From the IMG/VR virus record IMGVR_UViG_2671180417_000024: DNA of 7,248 bases; one strand, given 5' to 3'. The notes beneath the pieces are model-generated. The model had not been told where the DNA came from, did no database searches, and was given only the letters and a program-made list of their open reading frames with translations. Below are positions 1 through 5,798 of this stretch, piece by piece (positions within the stretch are counted from its first letter, which is position 1; each line of letters begins with the position of its first letter). The translations under genes and the position numbers were made by a program. Origin of the DNA: a virus (Duplodnaviria; Heunggongvirae; Uroviricota; Caudoviricetes).

Positions 1-171
1 TCAATAAATCCCATCATTGCGATCAACCTCATCCTTAACCATTGATGCGAGCAGTTCTTCCAGTTTCTGCGCTGACAGCTTTACCTGGTGATCTTCAGCA
101 TCTTCCCGGGCTATTGTGGTTCGCGCAGTGGCTGATTTTGCTGACATCACCACAGGGGGCAGACGGACCAT
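1..171 (-). CDS. Hypothetical small protein (56 aa from the internal ATG), function unknown
   Basis: The ORF-track ORF 1..282 begins at a TTG lying inside the hairpin repeat. The first ATG (171) is preceded by GGAGG with a 10-nt spacer and gives MVRLPPVVMSAKSATARTTIAREDAEDHQVKLSAQKLEELLASMVKDEVDRNDGIY, ending at a TGA at 1-3. I recognise no family for it. Confidence 0.3.
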   Translation of the reverse strand: MVRLPPVVMSAKSATARTTIAREDAEDHQVKLSAQKLEELLASMVKDEVDRNDGIY

Positions 172-235
172 TGAACCATGGCCTCCGGAACAAATAAGGG
201 CAAAAATAACAACCACTATCGAAAGCTCACAAACT

Positions 236-451
236 AACCGCAGCACGTTCCTGCATACGACGTGTCTGCGGCATAATCCCAATGATTACTCCCTGACAGG
301 GTTTGCAGGCCACTCAATATCAGGTGCAGTTGATGTATCAACACGATTCAACAATACCCGATATTTATTCCATGCCTCCAGCAACGATCTTTCTTCCTCC
401 GTTGCGATTTCCAGATCTACAGCATCCTGCAGTGGCGCAATATACTCACTG
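236..451. repeat. Direct repeat copy A (3' end of the tfa-like ORF plus a degenerate copy of the hairpin), about 90% identical to 1286-1500
   Basis: Same alignment as copy B. The hairpin copy here (242-275) has lost perfect symmetry: CCGCAGCACGT versus ACGTGTCTGCGG with a 1-bp insertion. Confidence 0.85.
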
Positions 452-555
452 AATTCCTGGATGTAGAACTGTGTGGTGACGGTCTTCCAGCCATTCGGCT
501 CCTGCTGTATCGAAGCATACCAGGCTATTTCAATATCGCTATGCTGCGGCAGCAT
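286..555 (-). CDS. Short Tfa-like protein: novel 35-aa N-terminus fused to a conserved tail-fibre-assembly C-terminal segment (possible tfa remnant or alternative mini-chaperone)
   Basis: 89-aa ORF with SD-like AAGGGG 4 nt upstream of the ATG. The C-terminal ~51 aa ([51 protein letters not shown]) differ from the tfa C-terminus at about 5 positions; the N-terminus [35 protein letters not shown] is unrelated to tfa. Confidence 0.55.
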
Positions 556-563
556 TTAACCCC

Positions 564-592
564 TTGTAATTCATCGCCATAATTGATTTAAT
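564..592 (+). promoter_or_regulatory. Candidate sigma-70 promoter for the methyltransferase gene
   Basis: -35 TTGTAA (564-569), 17-bp spacer, extended -10 TGaTTTAAT (584-592), in a 56-bp AT-rich divergent intergenic region. Predicted start site near 599-600. Confidence 0.3.
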
Positions 593-611
593 TCACAAAT
601 AAAACTATAAC

Positions 612-1280
612 ATGGTGAAATCAATGAAAAAAAACACAGATGATGGGGCTAAAATTTACACACCACTTACCCTAAAGCTTTATGACTGGTGGGTTTTGGG
701 AGTATCAAATCGGCTTGCATGGGGATGTCCTACAAAGGAACACCTTCTTCCACACTTTCTGGAACATGTAGGTAACAACCATCTGGATATTGGTGTTGGA
801 ACTGGGTTTTACCTTACTCACGTACCTGAGAGTAGTCTGATATCTTTAATGGATTTGAACGAAGCTAGCCTGAACGCGGCATCTACAAGGGCTGGGGAAT
901 CAAAAATTAAACATAAAATTAGCCATGATGTTTTTGAACCTTATCCCGCGGCGTTACATGGTCAATTTGATTCCATTTCCATGTTTTACCTTCTTCACTG
1001 CCTGCCTGGAAATATATCTACAAAAAGCTGTGTAATACGCAATGCGGCGCAGGCCTTAACTGACGATGGAACTCTATACGGAGCCACAATTCTTGGCGAT
1101 GGAGTTGTGCACAATAGCTTCGGTCAAAAACTGATGCGCATTTACAATCAGAAAGGCATCTTTTCAAACACAAAAGATTCCGAAGAAGGCTTAACACATA
1201 TACTCTCAGAGCATTTCGAGAATGTTAAAACCAAGGTTCAAGGTACTGTAGTAATGTTTTCCGCTTCAGGGAAAAAATAG
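612..1280 (+). CDS. Class I SAM-dependent methyltransferase, substrate unknown (horizontally acquired cargo gene / moron)
   Basis: 222-codon ORF on the opposite strand to the tail genes. Motif I LDIGVGTGFY (GxGxG), downstream acidic LMDLNE and FYLLHCLPGN fit a Rossmann-fold methyltransferase. No DPPY/NPPF or PC-Q DNA-methyltransferase motifs. Visibly AT-rich with rare E. coli codons (AGG, CTA, ATA, GGA). The ATG at 612 has no SD; the in-frame ATG at 624 is preceded by GGTGA (614-618) and may be the true start. Confidence 0.85.
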   Translation: MVKSMKKNTDDGAKIYTPLTLKLYDWWVLGVSNRLAWGCPTKEHLLPHFLEHVGNNHLDIGVGTGFYLTHVPESSLISLMDLNEASLNAASTRAGESKIKHKISHDVFEPYPAALHGQFDSISMFYLLHCLPGNISTKSCVIRNAAQALTDDGTLYGATILGDGVVHNSFGQKLMRIYNQKGIFSNTKDSEEGLTHILSEHFENVKTKVQGTVVMFSASGKK

Positions 1281-1285
1281 CATCC

Positions 1286-1500
1286 AACCGCAGCACGTTC
1301 TTGCTTAAGACGTGCTGCGGCATAATCCCAATGATTACTCCCTGACAGGGTTCGTAGGCCACTCAATATCAGGTGCAGTTGATGTATCAACACGGTTCAG
1401 CAACACCCGATACTTTTTCCAGGCTTCCAGCAATGAGGTTTCTTCCTCCGTTGCAATTTCCAGATCTGCAGCATCCTGAAGCGGCGCAATATGCTCACTG
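1286..1500. repeat. Direct repeat copy B (3' end of tfa plus downstream hairpin), about 90% identical to 236-451
   Basis: Manual alignment of 1286-1500 against 236-451 gave roughly 21 mismatches and one 1-bp indel over ~215 bp, in the same orientation. Confidence 0.85.
1288..1320. terminator. Perfect 11-bp inverted repeat hairpin between the convergent tfa and methyltransferase genes (candidate bidirectional terminator / recombination junction)
   Basis: CCGCAGCACGT (1288-1298) and ACGTGCTGCGG (1310-1320) are exact reverse complements, with an 11-nt loop containing CTTAAG. It sits 7 nt after the methyltransferase stop and 14 nt after the tfa stop. On the minus strand a U-run (UAUUUUUUC) follows only after a 9-nt gap; on the plus strand there is no U-run, so terminator function is uncertain. 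Confidence 0.5.
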
Positions 1501-1919
1501 GCTACCTGCATCAGGTTGTTTTTTGTTTCTTCCGCCTCCCGGATCCGGAACAGTTTTTCTGCTTCCGTATCCTTCACCCAGGCTGTGCCGTTCCACTTCT
1601 GAAACTCCCCTTCCGGCGATAACCAGGTAACATTTTCCGGTAACGGACCGAGTTCAGAAATAAATAACGCGTCGCCGGAAGCCACGTCATAAACCGTTTT
1701 ACCCCGATGGTCTTCAAAGAGATGCCACGATGACTCATCACTGTTGAAAACAGCCACGAAGCCTGCCGGAATATCTAACGGTGCAATATCGGTACTGTTT
1801 GCAGGCAGACCTGTATGAGGCGGAATATATGCGCCACCTTCACCAATAAATTCATTAGTTCCGGCCAGCAGATTATAAATTTTTATGGTCCGTGGTTGTT
1901 CACTCATTCTGAATGCCAT
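1335..1919 (-). CDS. tfa: Tail fibre assembly protein (chaperone) Tfa
   Basis: 194-aa [50 protein letters not shown]…WPTNPVRE is near-identical to lambda Tfa as I recall it. Its ATG overlaps the stf stop as TAATG (position 1919 is shared). Confidence 0.95.
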
Positions 1920-4900
1920 TATGCAAGCCTCACAATATAGTTAAATGCGATGTTTTTGACGGTGTTTTCCGCGTTACCAGCAGCGTTAACGGTGATGGTG
2001 TGTCCATGTGAACCAATCGCAACGGAGTGCGCATGAGCACCAATTGGAACAGAGTGCGCATGGTTACCTGTAGTGCTTGTGGCACCAGACCAGGTTCTGG
2101 AAGCGTTAAAGTTTACAGGAACACCATAAGTAAATTGAGAGCCCGTAAATCCATGGGCTGGCGCAGAGCCACCCAGTGTAAATGCTCCACTTGCTGTATA
2201 GAAATTACCGCTATCACTTCTGAAGTAACCGAGAGTACCGGTAATTTCCATAGTGCCTCGGCTGTGGTTATGGTCACCAGTGGCATTTGAAGACTTAGTA
2301 CCATAATCAAACGACGACGTGGTTTTCGTCCCCAAATCCGTACTGGATGCACTGGCGCTGTGGGTGTGCGATTTAATGCCGTCCTGTTCCTGAGATAATA
2401 CGGCTCGACCACTGGCAGGTTTGCCCTTAATCGTCCAGCCACGCATATCAGGGATCACGCCTGACGGATAAGCAGCTGCAAGTTTCGGGTAAGCAGATTT
2501 GTCAAAAGTCTGCCCCTGCATCAGAGCATAACCAGACGGAACGGTATCTGATGGCCACGGGATTGGTGCGCCGACTGGGTAGCTTTCTGGTGGAAGATTT
2601 TTCGAGGTATAAACTTCTGCCCAGTCTTCCTCAAAACCATAACCGTCTCTTGAAGAACGGTAGAACAGACCACGATTTCTGTAATGCGCCTTCATCTGCA
2701 GGGTCCGGCAACTTCCGACTCCGGTATAGAAGTTAACCAGAATATAGCTGTCGCCAGAGCGGGTGACATTGTAAGCGCCTGATTCGGCATTCCAGGGAAC
2801 GGCTCCATCCGAATCCGCATAAGCCCCCGTCGAACGTCGGGCAAATGCACCAATATTTTCCGGCGTGAGGTTAATATCCGCCGAGCCATCAAACTTAACA
2901 CCGTTAATTTTTGGGACTGCCGCAAGTTTCGTCGCGGTATCGGCGTTCCCCTTCAGTGCCCCGGTGATCCCATCAGTAACAGACAACGGACCTGAAATAG
3001 TCCCTCCAGTCGTTGGCAGCGCTCCAATATCTGATGGTGTAGGTTTCTGATGTGAGCTATACATCGTATAAACAACACCACCGGTAACGCTGGAAGGCTT
3101 ACTCGCTGAATATGTTGGCGAGGTATAAATAGAAACTGACGCATTTGTAGTACAATCCCAATGGATATTTACACTCGTCGCATAATTGCCAATCTCAACG
3201 TAAATATCATATGTATCGCCGGATGTGTTGATCCAGGCGAAATTCGTTAATCCGACGGCTGTACGCTTCCACAAAGCTCCGGTAATCCCTTTGGGCTTTC
3301 CATTGCCTGCTCGTAGAACCAGTTCTGAAATGCCTGCCTGCTGTGGGGAGCCGACGTTGTAACCAGCGTCACCAATCAATGCGATGTAAACGATGGAACT
3401 CGCTTGTGGCATGGTAACCGTTGCCAGTTTGAACCACCCTGCCCCGCCAGAGAAAGAGATCGTTACTGAATTTAAAGTGCCAATATCTTTCGGTGTTAAT
3501 GTTATATCCGCAGTCAGTGCTTTCCCGTTAACTTTTCGGTTAGATGGTACCCTGCCATTCGCATTGTCATTCGCTGCTTTAACTGCCTTCGGTGTCGCGG
3601 CAAGCGTTTCAGATGTGCTGTTGGTTGCACTGCTGAGCTGTACTATCCCCTTTTTCGTCGTACTTGCATCCTCAAGCGCCACGGCGGATGCAATATCCTC
3701 TGCCCGTTTTGCCGCTGTCTCGGCGCGCGTTGCCGCGGATTCCGCCGTACTTTTGCTCTGTGCTGCCGCCGTCGCACTGCCAGTTGCCTCTGTCGCCTTC
3801 GTGGATGCTGTCGTGGCGCTGCCCTTCGCTGCTGACGCCTGTCTGGTCGCCTCATCTTTTGAAGCTGACGCCGATGATGCCGATGACGCCGCCGAACTAG
3901 CGGACGATGCGGCAGCCGTTTTTGAGGATTCTGCGCTGGTTTCCGACGCTTTCGCGTTCGTCTCGGATGTCTTCGCTGCGGAAGCAGACCTCGCTGCTGC
4001 ACTGGCCTGTTCAGTGGCTTCGCCAGCCTTCGTTGTGGCTGTTGAAGCAGACGAGGCGGCACTTTCTGCCGACTTTCCGGCAGCGGTGGCACTGGCTGAG
4101 GCCTGCCCGGCACTTGTTGACGCGGCACTGGCAGATAATGCAGCCGCTGTTTTTGAACCTGCCGCAGCTGAGGCGCTCTGTTCCGCTGCCGTCTCAGAAG
4201 ACTTAGCGTTCGTCTCGGACGTTTTTGCCGCCTTCGCAGAATTTGCTGTCGCCGTTGCCGAGGAAGCTGCGCTGCTGGCGCTCGAGGATGCATTCGTTTC
4301 TGAAGATTTCGCTGCCTCTTTTGAGGCCGCCGCACCCCGTGCCGAGGTGGCAGCTTCTGACGCCTTCGTGGTCGCTGTGGATGCAGAAGTGGCTGCCGAT
4401 TTTTGTGATGCTGCGGCATTCGTTTCTGACGTTTTCGCGGCACTGGCGCTGGTAGCTGCCGCGCTTTTTGATGACTCTGCAGCAGCAGCACTTTTTGCTG
4501 CTTCACGGGCCTTTGTCGATGCCGTTCCTGCGCTGGAAGACGCTGACTGAGCCGACGACGCGGCCTGTCCGGCTGACGTGCTGGCGGCACGTGCTGAGGC
4601 TGCAGCATCGGTTGCATGAGTTGCCGCCTCGCTGGCTGATGCACTGGCATCGCTGGCTGATTTTTTCGCGGCTGCCGTATTCTGTGCAACCGCGGAGGCG
4701 TTACGTGACACCTCTTCCACCATCTGCTCAAAGCGGCGCAGTGCCTCCGGTCGGACATCATCCTCCGTCATGGCACCGAGAAAATCATTCAGCGTACCTG
4801 GTCTGGAACCTTCATAGACGGTAATGGTCCCGGCATGTGAAGGCGGAAAACCTTCAACCAGCAGGGTGACGCTGTACTGACCATACTCGACGTCCATGCT

Positions 4901-5047
4901 GTAACGCCCTGCCTCATCCGGATTTTCAGAGGCCACCGTGTTCACCACCACCGTGCTGCTGGTTCGTCTGGCCTTCAGCACAATGGTGCAGTTCTGTACT
5001 GGTTTTCCTGTGCCATCTTTAAGCACGCCAGAAATTTTTACTGTCAT
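1919..5047 (-). CDS. stf: Side tail fibre protein (lambda Stf-like; mosaic with Ala/Ser-rich repeat shaft, phage-fibre repeat motifs and a T4 gp37-like HxH tip)
   Basis: 1042-aa ORF with SD GGTGGA 6 nt upstream of the ATG. N-terminus [28 protein letters not shown]…[14 protein letters not shown]…[13 protein letters not shown] matches the lambda Stf N-terminus as I recall it. Also present: conserved [24 protein letters not shown] motif and C-terminal GAPIPWPSD…[35 protein letters not shown]…[31 protein letters not shown]. Confidence 0.95.
3640..4710. repeat. Low-complexity, GC-rich coding repeats inside stf (Ala/Ser/Thr-rich shaft with recurring A-A-K-T/S-S-E-T-N-A units)
   Basis: Stf residues ~115-470 are almost entirely A/S/T/K/E, with the motif KTSETNA or KSSETNA occurring four times. 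The DNA shows recurring near-identical segments (e.g. ttcgtctcggatgtcttcgc, ttcgtctcggacgtttttgc, ttcgtttctgacgttttcgc). This is why long spurious ORFs open in several other frames here. Confidence 0.6.
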
Positions 5048-5198: not shown

Positions 5199-5798
5199 TC
5201 AGAAACGGTATCCGATACCAACAATAAATGCATCCGTTCGCCAGTCGCCACTGCCGGAGCCTTCATAAGCAATATCAATGGCCACGGATTCGGTCGGGTT
5301 AAACTGCACGCCAGCCCCCCACGCCAGAGACGTGTTGCTGTGGCGACCGTCATCACTTCCGGTCAGCACATCGTGCGTTTTCCCCTTGTTGTCAGTTACG
5401 CGGAGATAATCCCCGGAGAAAGTCGACACACGGCTGTAAGCCACACCCGCCATCGAATACGCGCTGAACCATTCATTCACGCGTACAGACGGCCCCGCCA
5501 TCACGCTGAACCAGCGGTTACGCACGGAATCTTCATGCCAGCGGGTATCGCTGTAATGCGTTTTTTGCTCATCTTTGGCATTGGCATAACTGAATGACGT
5601 CACCAGCCCCAGCGTGTCCGTAAATTCATAACGGTATTTCACGTTAATGCCCTTCAGGTCATCACTGCCTGGCATATCAGTATGGGTCTGAAGATACCCG
5701 GCGCTTAGTGTGGACTGATGCTCTGCTGCGCTCGCTGGCGTACCAGCGGCAACCAGCCAGACTACTGCGGACAGAATAACAGCACATAATTTACGCAT
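5199..5798 (-). CDS. lom: Lom-like outer membrane protein (Ail/Lom/OmpX/PagC family beta-barrel), with N-terminal signal peptide
   Basis: 199-aa ORF. N-terminus MRKLCAVILSAVVWLVAAGTPASA/AE looks like a Sec signal peptide. GINVKYRYE and the C-terminal AYEGSGSGDWRTDAFIVGIGYRF with terminal aromatic residue match lambda Lom as I recall it. SD GAGG lies 6 nt upstream of the ATG. Position directly downstream of J is as in lambda. Confidence 0.92.
   Translation of the reverse strand: MRKLCAVILSAVVWLVAAGTPASAAEHQSTLSAGYLQTHTDMPGSDDLKGINVKYRYEFTDTLGLVTSFSYANAKDEQKTHYSDTRWHEDSVRNRWFSVMAGPSVRVNEWFSAYSMAGVAYSRVSTFSGDYLRVTDNKGKTHDVLTGSDDGRHSNTSLAWGAGVQFNPTESVAIDIAYEGSGSGDWRTDAFIVGIGYRF

Follow-up and report, generated by a model that had tools for sequence, protein, structure and literature searches.

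A short Tfa-like open reading frame beside a prophage methyltransferase gene appears to be an in-frame chimera of a phrog_3893 gene and a tfa 3' end

What does a second, short Tfa-like open reading frame (ORF) contribute to a prophage that already carries a full-length tail fibre assembly gene, tfa? The question is raised by a 7,248-nucleotide (nt) stretch of Caudoviricetes DNA, IMG/VR record IMGVR_UViG_2671180417_000024 (hereafter, the window, meaning the whole stretch analyzed), in which an ORF of 89 amino acids (aa) at positions 286-555 ends like Tfa and is transcribed divergently from a methyltransferase gene across a spacer of 56 bp, an arrangement that the first-pass annotation of this DNA had described correctly. 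That annotation left two options, namely a decaying remnant of an alternative tfa allele or a truncated chaperone still able to interact with the fibre. Our results place the first one closer to the truth, as the 3' two-thirds of the ORF are the remnant of a second tfa allele, but the ORF as a whole reads as a chimera of two genes and not as a truncated tfa. According to the explanation that we regard as very likely, the ORF is an in-frame recombination joint between both genes without a selected protein function, and its DNA serves as homology for the shuffling of a methyltransferase cassette. Further, the ORF is an already catalogued E. coli prophage relic, tfaX: family phrog_2341 ("unknown function") covers it entirely (E 4e-61, positions 1-88 of 88), and the 61-aa TfaX of E. 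coli K-12 is 100% identical to its residues 1-61. What is added here to the known tfaX is that it carries the 5' end of a phrog_3893 gene fused to the 3' end of tfa. The features of the locus are the following, with the basis of each assignment in parentheses:

286-555, minus strand: chimeric ORF of 89 aa with an ATG start, orthologue of tfaX/ylcE, phrog_2341 (ORF list and PHROG).
451-555, minus strand: 5' module, codons 1-35, apparently from a phrog_3893 gene (hhalign, tblastn and nucleotide alignment).
451-459, minus strand: junction zone ATCCAGGAA, similar to both parents (three-way nucleotide alignment).
286-450, minus strand: 3' module, codons 36-89 plus the stop codon, from a tfa 3' end (Pfam and nucleotide identity).
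560-565, minus strand: AAGGGG Shine-Dalgarno motif, derived from the phrog_3893 gene and located 4 nt from the ATG (comparison with the EC2, Ayreon and C1 alleles).
556-611, no strand: spacer of 56 bp between the divergent fusion ORF and methyltransferase gene (ORF coordinates).

The origin of the 3' module was established by protein and nucleotide comparisons. An ungapped alignment pairs the 54 C-terminal residues of the ORF with the end of the 194-aa Tfa encoded in the same window, with 49 of 54 positions identical (~91%) and five substitutions (Y/H, V/A, R/T, N/K and A/T), in good agreement with the ~51 residues and ~5 substitutions initially reported. In the shared coding segment 17 of 162 nt differ, and from ORF nt 105 onwards the module displays 87-93% nucleotide identity to the window tfa. 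The Pfam domain Caudo_TAP (PF02413) was matched by residues 31-86 at positions 75-130 of 131 (E 6e-25); the missing positions 1-74 correspond to the variable fibre-binding domain, to which Tfa owes its specificity, and most of helix 1, and what remains of Tfa is the final ~10 residues of helix 1, followed by helix 2 and the DIEWP tail. This domain limit can be read against the modular architecture described for Mu Tfa and Pam3 gp25, in which a variable N-terminal beta-sandwich binds the fibre tip (PMC9608196).

The first 35 residues had been considered unrelated, which holds with respect to Tfa, but they are not anonymous, as they correspond in frame to the 5' end of a conserved gene family that brings its own Shine-Dalgarno site. 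In profile comparisons using hhalign, residues 2-36 were aligned to positions 1-35 of 79 of a 38-member family (probability 96%, E 3e-9), and the hidden Markov model of phrog_3893 in PHROG matched residues 3-37 at positions 2-36 of 79 (E 3e-7). A tblastn search with the first 38 residues retrieved the same ORF in about 14 E. coli phages, and it also matched small ORFs, at their N-termini, in Klebsiella phage Kp4882-3 (51%, E 8e-6) and phage Ayreon (75%), with a weak match to gp29 of phage HK225. At the nucleotide level, ORF nt 1-87 are 87-93% identical to an intact 80-aa phrog_3893 copy in an E. coli C1 prophage (MMPQRSDIEIAWHASIQREPNGRKTVTTQRFVQEL...). Conversely, the full-length Tfa proteins bearing this N-terminus that the first-pass annotation had suggested searching for were not found among 800 database hits, where every protein with the N-terminus begins with it and is at most 142 aa long. 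Because the N-terminus, the Shine-Dalgarno site and the start are homologous in frame to phrog_3893, the sequence comparisons indicate that the ORF is an in-frame chimera of a phrog_3893 5' end and a tfa 3' end rather than a truncated tfa.

A database search using the Klebsiella ORF led to a 79-aa donor family, mostly named "DNA polymerase V" at NCBI and present in Klebsiella, Raoultella, Enterobacter, Salmonella, Citrobacter, Erwinia, Pantoea and E. coli. Perfect LexA boxes were located upstream of the native gene in Kp4882-3 and HK225 (TACTGTATATAAAAACAGTA and TACTGTATATACATACAGT), and two LexA-box-like CTG-N10-CAG motifs upstream of the C1 copy; dinI lies divergent from the gene in HK225 and C1, and a gene for an S24 (UmuD-like) peptidase follows within 2 nt downstream in Kp4882-3, C1 and the Citrobacter and E. 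coli loci, HK225 (invertase gene next) and the Pantoea loci (an unannotated gene of 107 aa next) being the exceptions. Members of the family occupy prophage ends, after tail-spike or gtr cargo genes, and in Pantoea prophages the 79-aa gene is located directly downstream of tfa on the same strand. In the collection of loci analyzed, donor genes lie at L003:3004-3243, L004:3001-3300, L086:~4009-4251 and L089-L097:3001-3240. phrog_3893 appears to be an uncharacterised SOS-associated prophage gene family, and its "DNA polymerase V" designation looks like a misnomer carried over from neighbouring genes.

The AlphaFold2 model of the donor family (mean predicted local distance difference test score, pLDDT, 85.5) displays the order helix, hairpin, helix, helix, strand, strand, which is that of a winged helix, and the top Foldseek matches in the PDB were mostly winged-helix DNA-binding domains, none of them significant (best E 0.13); thus, the modelled winged-helix assignment is tentative. 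Homology to the fusion ends at residue ~36, so that only helix 1, the beta-hairpin and helix 2 of this fold are retained, and the elements H43-53, E57-59 and E69-72, among them the putative recognition helix and the wing, are missing.

The zone where both parents meet was delimited by three-way alignment to ATCCAGGAA, whose parental counterparts are GTCCAGGAA in the phrog_3893 gene and ATGCAGGTA in tfa. Because it resembles both, the zone is best described, on alignment grounds, as an imperfect microhomology patch of 9 nt. At the other end of the 5' module, the Shine-Dalgarno-like AAGGGG reported previously was confirmed. The EC2, Ayreon and C1 alleles begin with ATG ATG, the second ATG being the family start, at ~7 nt from the Shine-Dalgarno site (6 nt in C1), whereas codon 2 of the window allele (codons 1-2 at 550-555) is CTG, which leaves only the upstream ATG at its 4-nt spacing and is likely to have weakened translation initiation. 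Neither a LexA box (CTGT-N8-ACAG) in or near the 556-611 spacer nor a consensus-like sigma-70 promoter facing the fusion ORF within it was found by motif scanning, and the ORF is followed by a hairpin and a DUF4376 fragment, with no S24/UmuD-like gene. The fusion has lost the LexA-box promoter of its donor.

The similarity between both tfa 3' ends extends beyond the coding overlap, and includes 50 nt past each stop codon, forming a direct repeat of 227 nt (236-462 versus 1286-1511, about 89% identical, a similarity far above chance) that brackets the methyltransferase gene:

236-462, minus strand: distal repeat copy, comprising the tfa 3' end and its 50-nt 3' flank, with hairpin 237-272 (repeat search and folding).
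612-1280, plus strand: class I S-adenosylmethionine (SAM)-dependent methyltransferase gene, ybcY-like, phrog_2132 (Pfam and PHROG matches).
1286-1511, minus strand: proximal repeat copy, inside and just after the full-length tfa, with hairpin 1287-1321 (repeat search and folding).

Both hairpins are GC-rich, with folding free energies of -24 kcal/mol (z -3.1) for 237-272 and -28.5 kcal/mol (z -4.7) for 1287-1321, the latter located between the convergent tfa and methyltransferase genes.

These elements can be integrated in the following proposed mechanism. An ancestral phage (A) would have carried stf, tfa, a hairpin or terminator, an antisense methyltransferase gene and a phrog_3893 gene, in this order. 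A single illegitimate crossover at the 9-nt imperfect ATCCAGGAA-like microhomology would have joined codon ~35 of the phrog_3893 gene to codon ~141 of the tfa of a second phage (B), whose right arm (tfa 3' end, terminator, DUF4376 fragment and prophage end) would have replaced that of A. The product observed joins the helix 1-hairpin-helix 2 portion of the donor protein, helix to helix, with the 54 C-terminal residues of Tfa. Two different tfa alleles are favoured over a recent internal duplication because the repeat copies are 11% divergent. The resulting direct repeats of ~227 bp, a sequence common to many tfa genes, could then move the methyltransferase cassette by homologous recombination, allowing its exchange among phages with different tail-fibre modules and right arms, and the ORF would survive as a hitch-hiker repeatedly patched by exchange with real tfa genes. 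We infer that the protein has no selected function, and that the DNA is what persists.

Breakpoints on both sides of the cassette were examined in orthologous loci. Upstream of the methyltransferase gene, homology to the window tfa begins at nt 1, 53, 147, 440, 465 or 488 depending on the locus, or is absent. On the right side of the fusion, colinearity with the window extends as far as its position 1 in 38 loci; in another 39 it ends at ORF nt 241-246, immediately past DIEWP, and in 2 at nt 224. The fusion tails found (ANPVRE, EEPDTM, TSPAE, AVPVME and TGPIIE) are the same set as those of full-length Tfa proteins, and the high-frequency variants of the fusion form haplotype blocks common to paralogous full-length tfa copies; this sharing points to recombination. 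In the EC2 allele, the methyltransferase gene and spacer are near-identical to those of the window (synonymous divergence, pS, 0.02; 1 of 56 nt, respectively), and the tfa part of the fusion differs at 27 of 162 nt.

The cassette is kept in degraded remnants without stf or tfa (L057, L009 and the DLP12 element of K-12), as well as in the active phage ev243, whose annotation contains no Tfa-type chaperone upstream and whose fusion is the 101-aa form, presumably the DIEWP-less form of the protein database. As for its ancestral arrangement, phage Ayreon carries, beside a tfa 3' fragment and the hairpin, a 3' stub of ~45 nt from the methyltransferase gene and the final 27 nt of the spacer, and its phrog_3893 gene is decayed but not fused, a layout indicating that the methyltransferase and phrog_3893 genes were once neighbours without a tfa fusion; extant E. 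coli prophages with an intact methyltransferase gene beside an unfused phrog_3893 gene were not found, only Ayreon-type loci with the 3' stub.

Two further observations were made on the surroundings of the cassette. In ev243 (L088) it is followed by an alpha/beta hydrolase gene and ompT, and in K-12 DLP12 (L005) by appY and ompT; the methyltransferase/tfaX cassette seems to travel beside ompT-containing right arms in one lineage. In addition, at L009:1371-1721, immediately upstream of the methyltransferase gene and beside an inverted J fragment, an N-terminal fragment of a Pin-type invertase runs into a tfa 3' end, a second and independent case of a chimeric joint in this conserved tfa segment.

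Whether the fusion is maintained as a protein was addressed using 79 orthologous IMG/VR loci, picked by similarity to the intact protein. Nonsense alleles were identified at W12 (3 loci), Q29 (2 loci) and W62 (9 loci, involving both TGA and TAG), in addition to one frameshift and one tail replacement, for a total of 16 disrupted loci arising from at least 5 independent events, versus none among 72 complete copies of the methyltransferase gene (Fisher p 1.6e-5). In the protein database, forms of 61 aa (that of K-12), 82 aa and 101 aa, all without the DIEWP end, are common, and frameshift forms of 105 and 108 aa are common as well. The polymorphism of each segment was as follows:

Fusion codons 1-35: 5 synonymous, 9 nonsynonymous and 2 stop; pN/pS (nonsynonymous to synonymous polymorphism ratio) 0.51, compatible with neutrality (p 0.17).
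Fusion tfa part, codons 36-75, all variants: 16 synonymous, 15 nonsynonymous and 2 stop; the common variants occur as blocks that full-length tfa genes also have.
Fusion tfa part, private variants only: 2 synonymous, 10 nonsynonymous and 2 stop (12 versus 2).
Methyltransferase: 21 synonymous, 20 nonsynonymous and no stop; pN/pS 0.27 (p 5e-5).

Among rare variants, defined as those seen in no more than 3 loci, with the recurrent W62 stop added, nonsynonymous or stop changes outnumbered synonymous ones by 22 to 6 in the fusion and by 14 to 12 in the methyltransferase gene (p = 0.08). These counts, though small, agree in suggesting that constraint is relaxed on the fusion and that the methyltransferase gene is under purifying selection. 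The first-pass annotation had deduced purifying selection on the C-terminal segment from its mostly conservative substitutions, a claim that fails for the present ORF in view of its private mutations. The codon-level comparison recommended there does give a low ratio of nonsynonymous to synonymous substitution rates for the two window tfa C-terminal copies (dN/dS 0.116, dS 0.39), which reflects divergence accumulated while both were complete tfa genes. This ratio was therefore rejected as a test of current selection, given that the divergence is older than the fusion and has imported tracts mixed into it; the low value goes back to functional tfa alleles and is renewed by recombination. The fusion appears to be drifting neutrally and not to be maintained as a working mini-chaperone.

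An alternative that we consider unlikely is that the ORF encodes a functional mini-Tfa or decoy, whose C-terminal helices co-oligomerise with full-length Tfa or with nascent fibre trimers and thereby modulate or poison fibre assembly. Helix 2 and DIEWP are kept, and the conserved C-terminal helices of Tfa have been proposed to mediate trimerisation (PMC9608196). AlphaFold2 placed a single helix (28-47) across the junction, a second one at 53-71 and a disordered tail, in a model of low confidence (pLDDT 66; predicted template modelling score, pTM, 0.47) that was used for the secondary structure of the junction only. A further set of observations weighs against our interpretation and in this direction. 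The C-terminal part of the ORF is matched by phrog_3792, a family of ~78 aa annotated as "tail assembly chaperones", from which short C-domain-only Tfa-like proteins may exist as real genes. Frames of 86-89 aa are open in most sampled copies (about 80%), although a 270-nt ORF at <10% divergence is easily open by chance; the diverged EC2 allele, with 83% amino-acid identity, is also open; and the ORF occurs in deposited phage genomes (PhiR26_1, Turner, Kati, 2G7b and ev243), for several of which a propagation host is named. The mutation counts compared above are small, and the contrast between fusion and methyltransferase gene reaches only the p-value given.

Expression hints from K-12 belong to the same set, together with the Shine-Dalgarno site. 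Binding of RpoD holoenzyme, determined by systematic evolution of ligands by exponential enrichment (SELEX), and of H-NS has been reported for the spacer between the divergent ybcY and tfaX (PMC3946193); ylcE was up 2.55-fold in a mixed-species biofilm (PMC3646849); and the 61-aa allele of K-12 tfaX raised the kanamycin minimum inhibitory concentration 3-fold in a genome-wide screen for survival genes (PMC12924614), the last two results not being followed up in the respective studies.

Against the mini-Tfa stand the neutral-looking private mutations and recurrent truncations, with DIEWP lost in the very common 82-, 101- and 61-aa alleles; the retention of only ~10 residues of Tfa helix 1, with no fibre-binding domain; the low confidence of the structural model; and the loss of the native promoter. 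The sole promoter proposed for K-12 tfaX, ATGGCA-15-TTAAAT (PMC3946193), has a -10 element that overlies the start codon and, judged by position, would yield a transcript without the Shine-Dalgarno site and ATG. Moreover, the ORF persists in remnants without fibre genes, and neither NCBIfam nor PADLOC returned any match for the fusion ORF or for the 79-aa phrog_3893 family. The proposal that an expressed decoy, with the Tfa C-terminal helices on a foreign scaffold, co-assembles with the Tfa chaperones of co-resident or superinfecting lambdoid phages and blocks or alters their side-tail-fibre assembly is very unlikely; if true, the decoy would accompany the methyltransferase cassette as a small factor in competition between phages.

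It is quite unlikely, in turn, that the ORF is a plain decaying tfa allele whose N-terminal 35 aa are junk read-through from truncation. It is clear that the final 165 nt of the ORF, with the terminator behind them, are the 3' end of a tfa gene, and in a genome 100% identical to the window over this region the NCBI Prokaryotic Genome Annotation Pipeline (PGAP) marks only 286-462, as a "tail fiber assembly protein, incomplete, missing N-terminus" pseudogene. As stated, this alternative is refuted by the 35 codons, Shine-Dalgarno site and start, all homologous in frame to a conserved family; a weaker form of it stands, in that the tfa-derived part is a remnant. The analogy with invertible host-range segments of the Mu G, P1 C or e14 type, carrying alternative fibre-tip and tfa cassettes, is highly improbable and was rejected on the orientation of the tfa copies: phrog_3893 genes do adjoin Pin-type invertases in HK225 and the C1 prophage, and an invertase fragment meets a tfa 3' end in L009, but both window copies have the same orientation, a search of window 1-2000 gave no inverted repeats, and neither an invertase nor an alternative stf 3' cassette is among the annotated ORFs of the window.

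The window contains the right end of a lambdoid prophage, with the 3' part of J, lom, stf and tfa on the minus strand:

5199-5798, minus strand: lom (ORF list).
1919-5047, minus strand: stf, side tail fibre gene, 1042 aa (ORF list).
1335-1919, minus strand: tfa, full-length, lambda-type, 194 aa, directly 3' of stf (ORF list and Pfam).
1-189, minus strand: DUF4376-domain pseudogene fragment with an internal stop, right-arm sequence 3' of the fusion (PGAP of the identical region and translation).

The start of the methyltransferase gene is probably the ATG at 624 rather than 612, because its PHROG alignment begins at residue 5; searches for an NCBIfam equivalog or a PADLOC match to this protein gave sub-threshold scores only. 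E. coli chromosomes of the sequence type 131 (ST131) kind are 100% identical to window 1-1400. In the best genome match to this region (L001), identity runs to position 1623 and divergence starts at ~1624, which is a mosaic breakpoint between both sequences inside the full-length tfa. The L001 genome has tfa annotated with an internal stop and a frameshifted lom, both of which are open in the window. After the DUF4376 fragment, in the sequence that adjoins the window start (L001:7573-8189), come an AT-rich stretch and then a truncated ompW; the prophage right end and its attachment site in ompW are a few hundred bases past the window start. The centre of stf (window 3390-4760) is repetitive and Ala/Ser/Thr-rich, and yields long spurious ORFs at 3393-4550 (plus strand, 385 aa) and 3643-4761 (minus strand, 372 aa).

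The locus is widespread, being present over most of its length in about 1,700 of 5,426 complete E. coli genomes, and its database labels vary among "tail fiber assembly protein", "protein TfaX", pseudogene and "hypothetical protein". In the searchable literature tfaX, ylcE and ybcY were found only in incidental mentions, with no functional study, and no description was found of a fusion of a second tfa 3' segment with an unrelated gene. The practical value of the present results lies in annotation, as they argue against counting the ORF as a second chaperone and, as a side product, flag the donor family as misnamed. They also illustrate in one case how the conserved tfa 3' end serves as a mobile handle for recombination on either side of a cargo gene. 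As a feature the ORF is real, though ordinary, and the current understanding of tail-fibre assembly is unchanged.

Compared with known systems, the ORF resembles lambda-type Tfa in its conserved C-terminal helical region ending in DIEWP. Lambda-type tfa genes adjoin the 3' end of their fibre gene, whereas the ORF does not, despite its co-orientation with stf-tfa, from which it is separated by the strong hairpin at 1287-1321 and the antisense methyltransferase gene. With the phrog_3893 genes (HK225 gp29 and others) it shares homologous residues 2-36, Shine-Dalgarno site and start region; the native genes encode 79-80 aa with a third helix and a two-strand wing, carry a LexA box (Kp4882-3 and HK225) or LexA-box-like motifs (C1) and mostly precede an S24 gene, all of which the window ORF lacks. 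The closest counterpart is tfaX (ylcE, b0563) of the K-12 DLP12 remnant, the same chimeric ORF of the same family, with the same synteny of tfaD, antisense ybcY and divergent short tfaX; K-12 has the W62 stop and a ybcY pseudogene, whereas the window has an open 89-aa allele and an intact methyltransferase gene, in a prophage beside ompW that retains J, lom, stf and tfa.

In the tail-fibre modules of lambdoid phages, P2 and Mu, the conserved 3' end of tfa is a known site of mosaic junctions, and cargo genes ("morons") are known downstream of tail-fibre genes. The present locus follows this pattern, with breakpoints to the left and right of the cassette that cluster within the conserved tfa 3' segment or where it ends, and an independently conserved cargo gene between them, and it differs in that a second tfa 3' segment is preserved here in an in-frame fusion with an unrelated gene.

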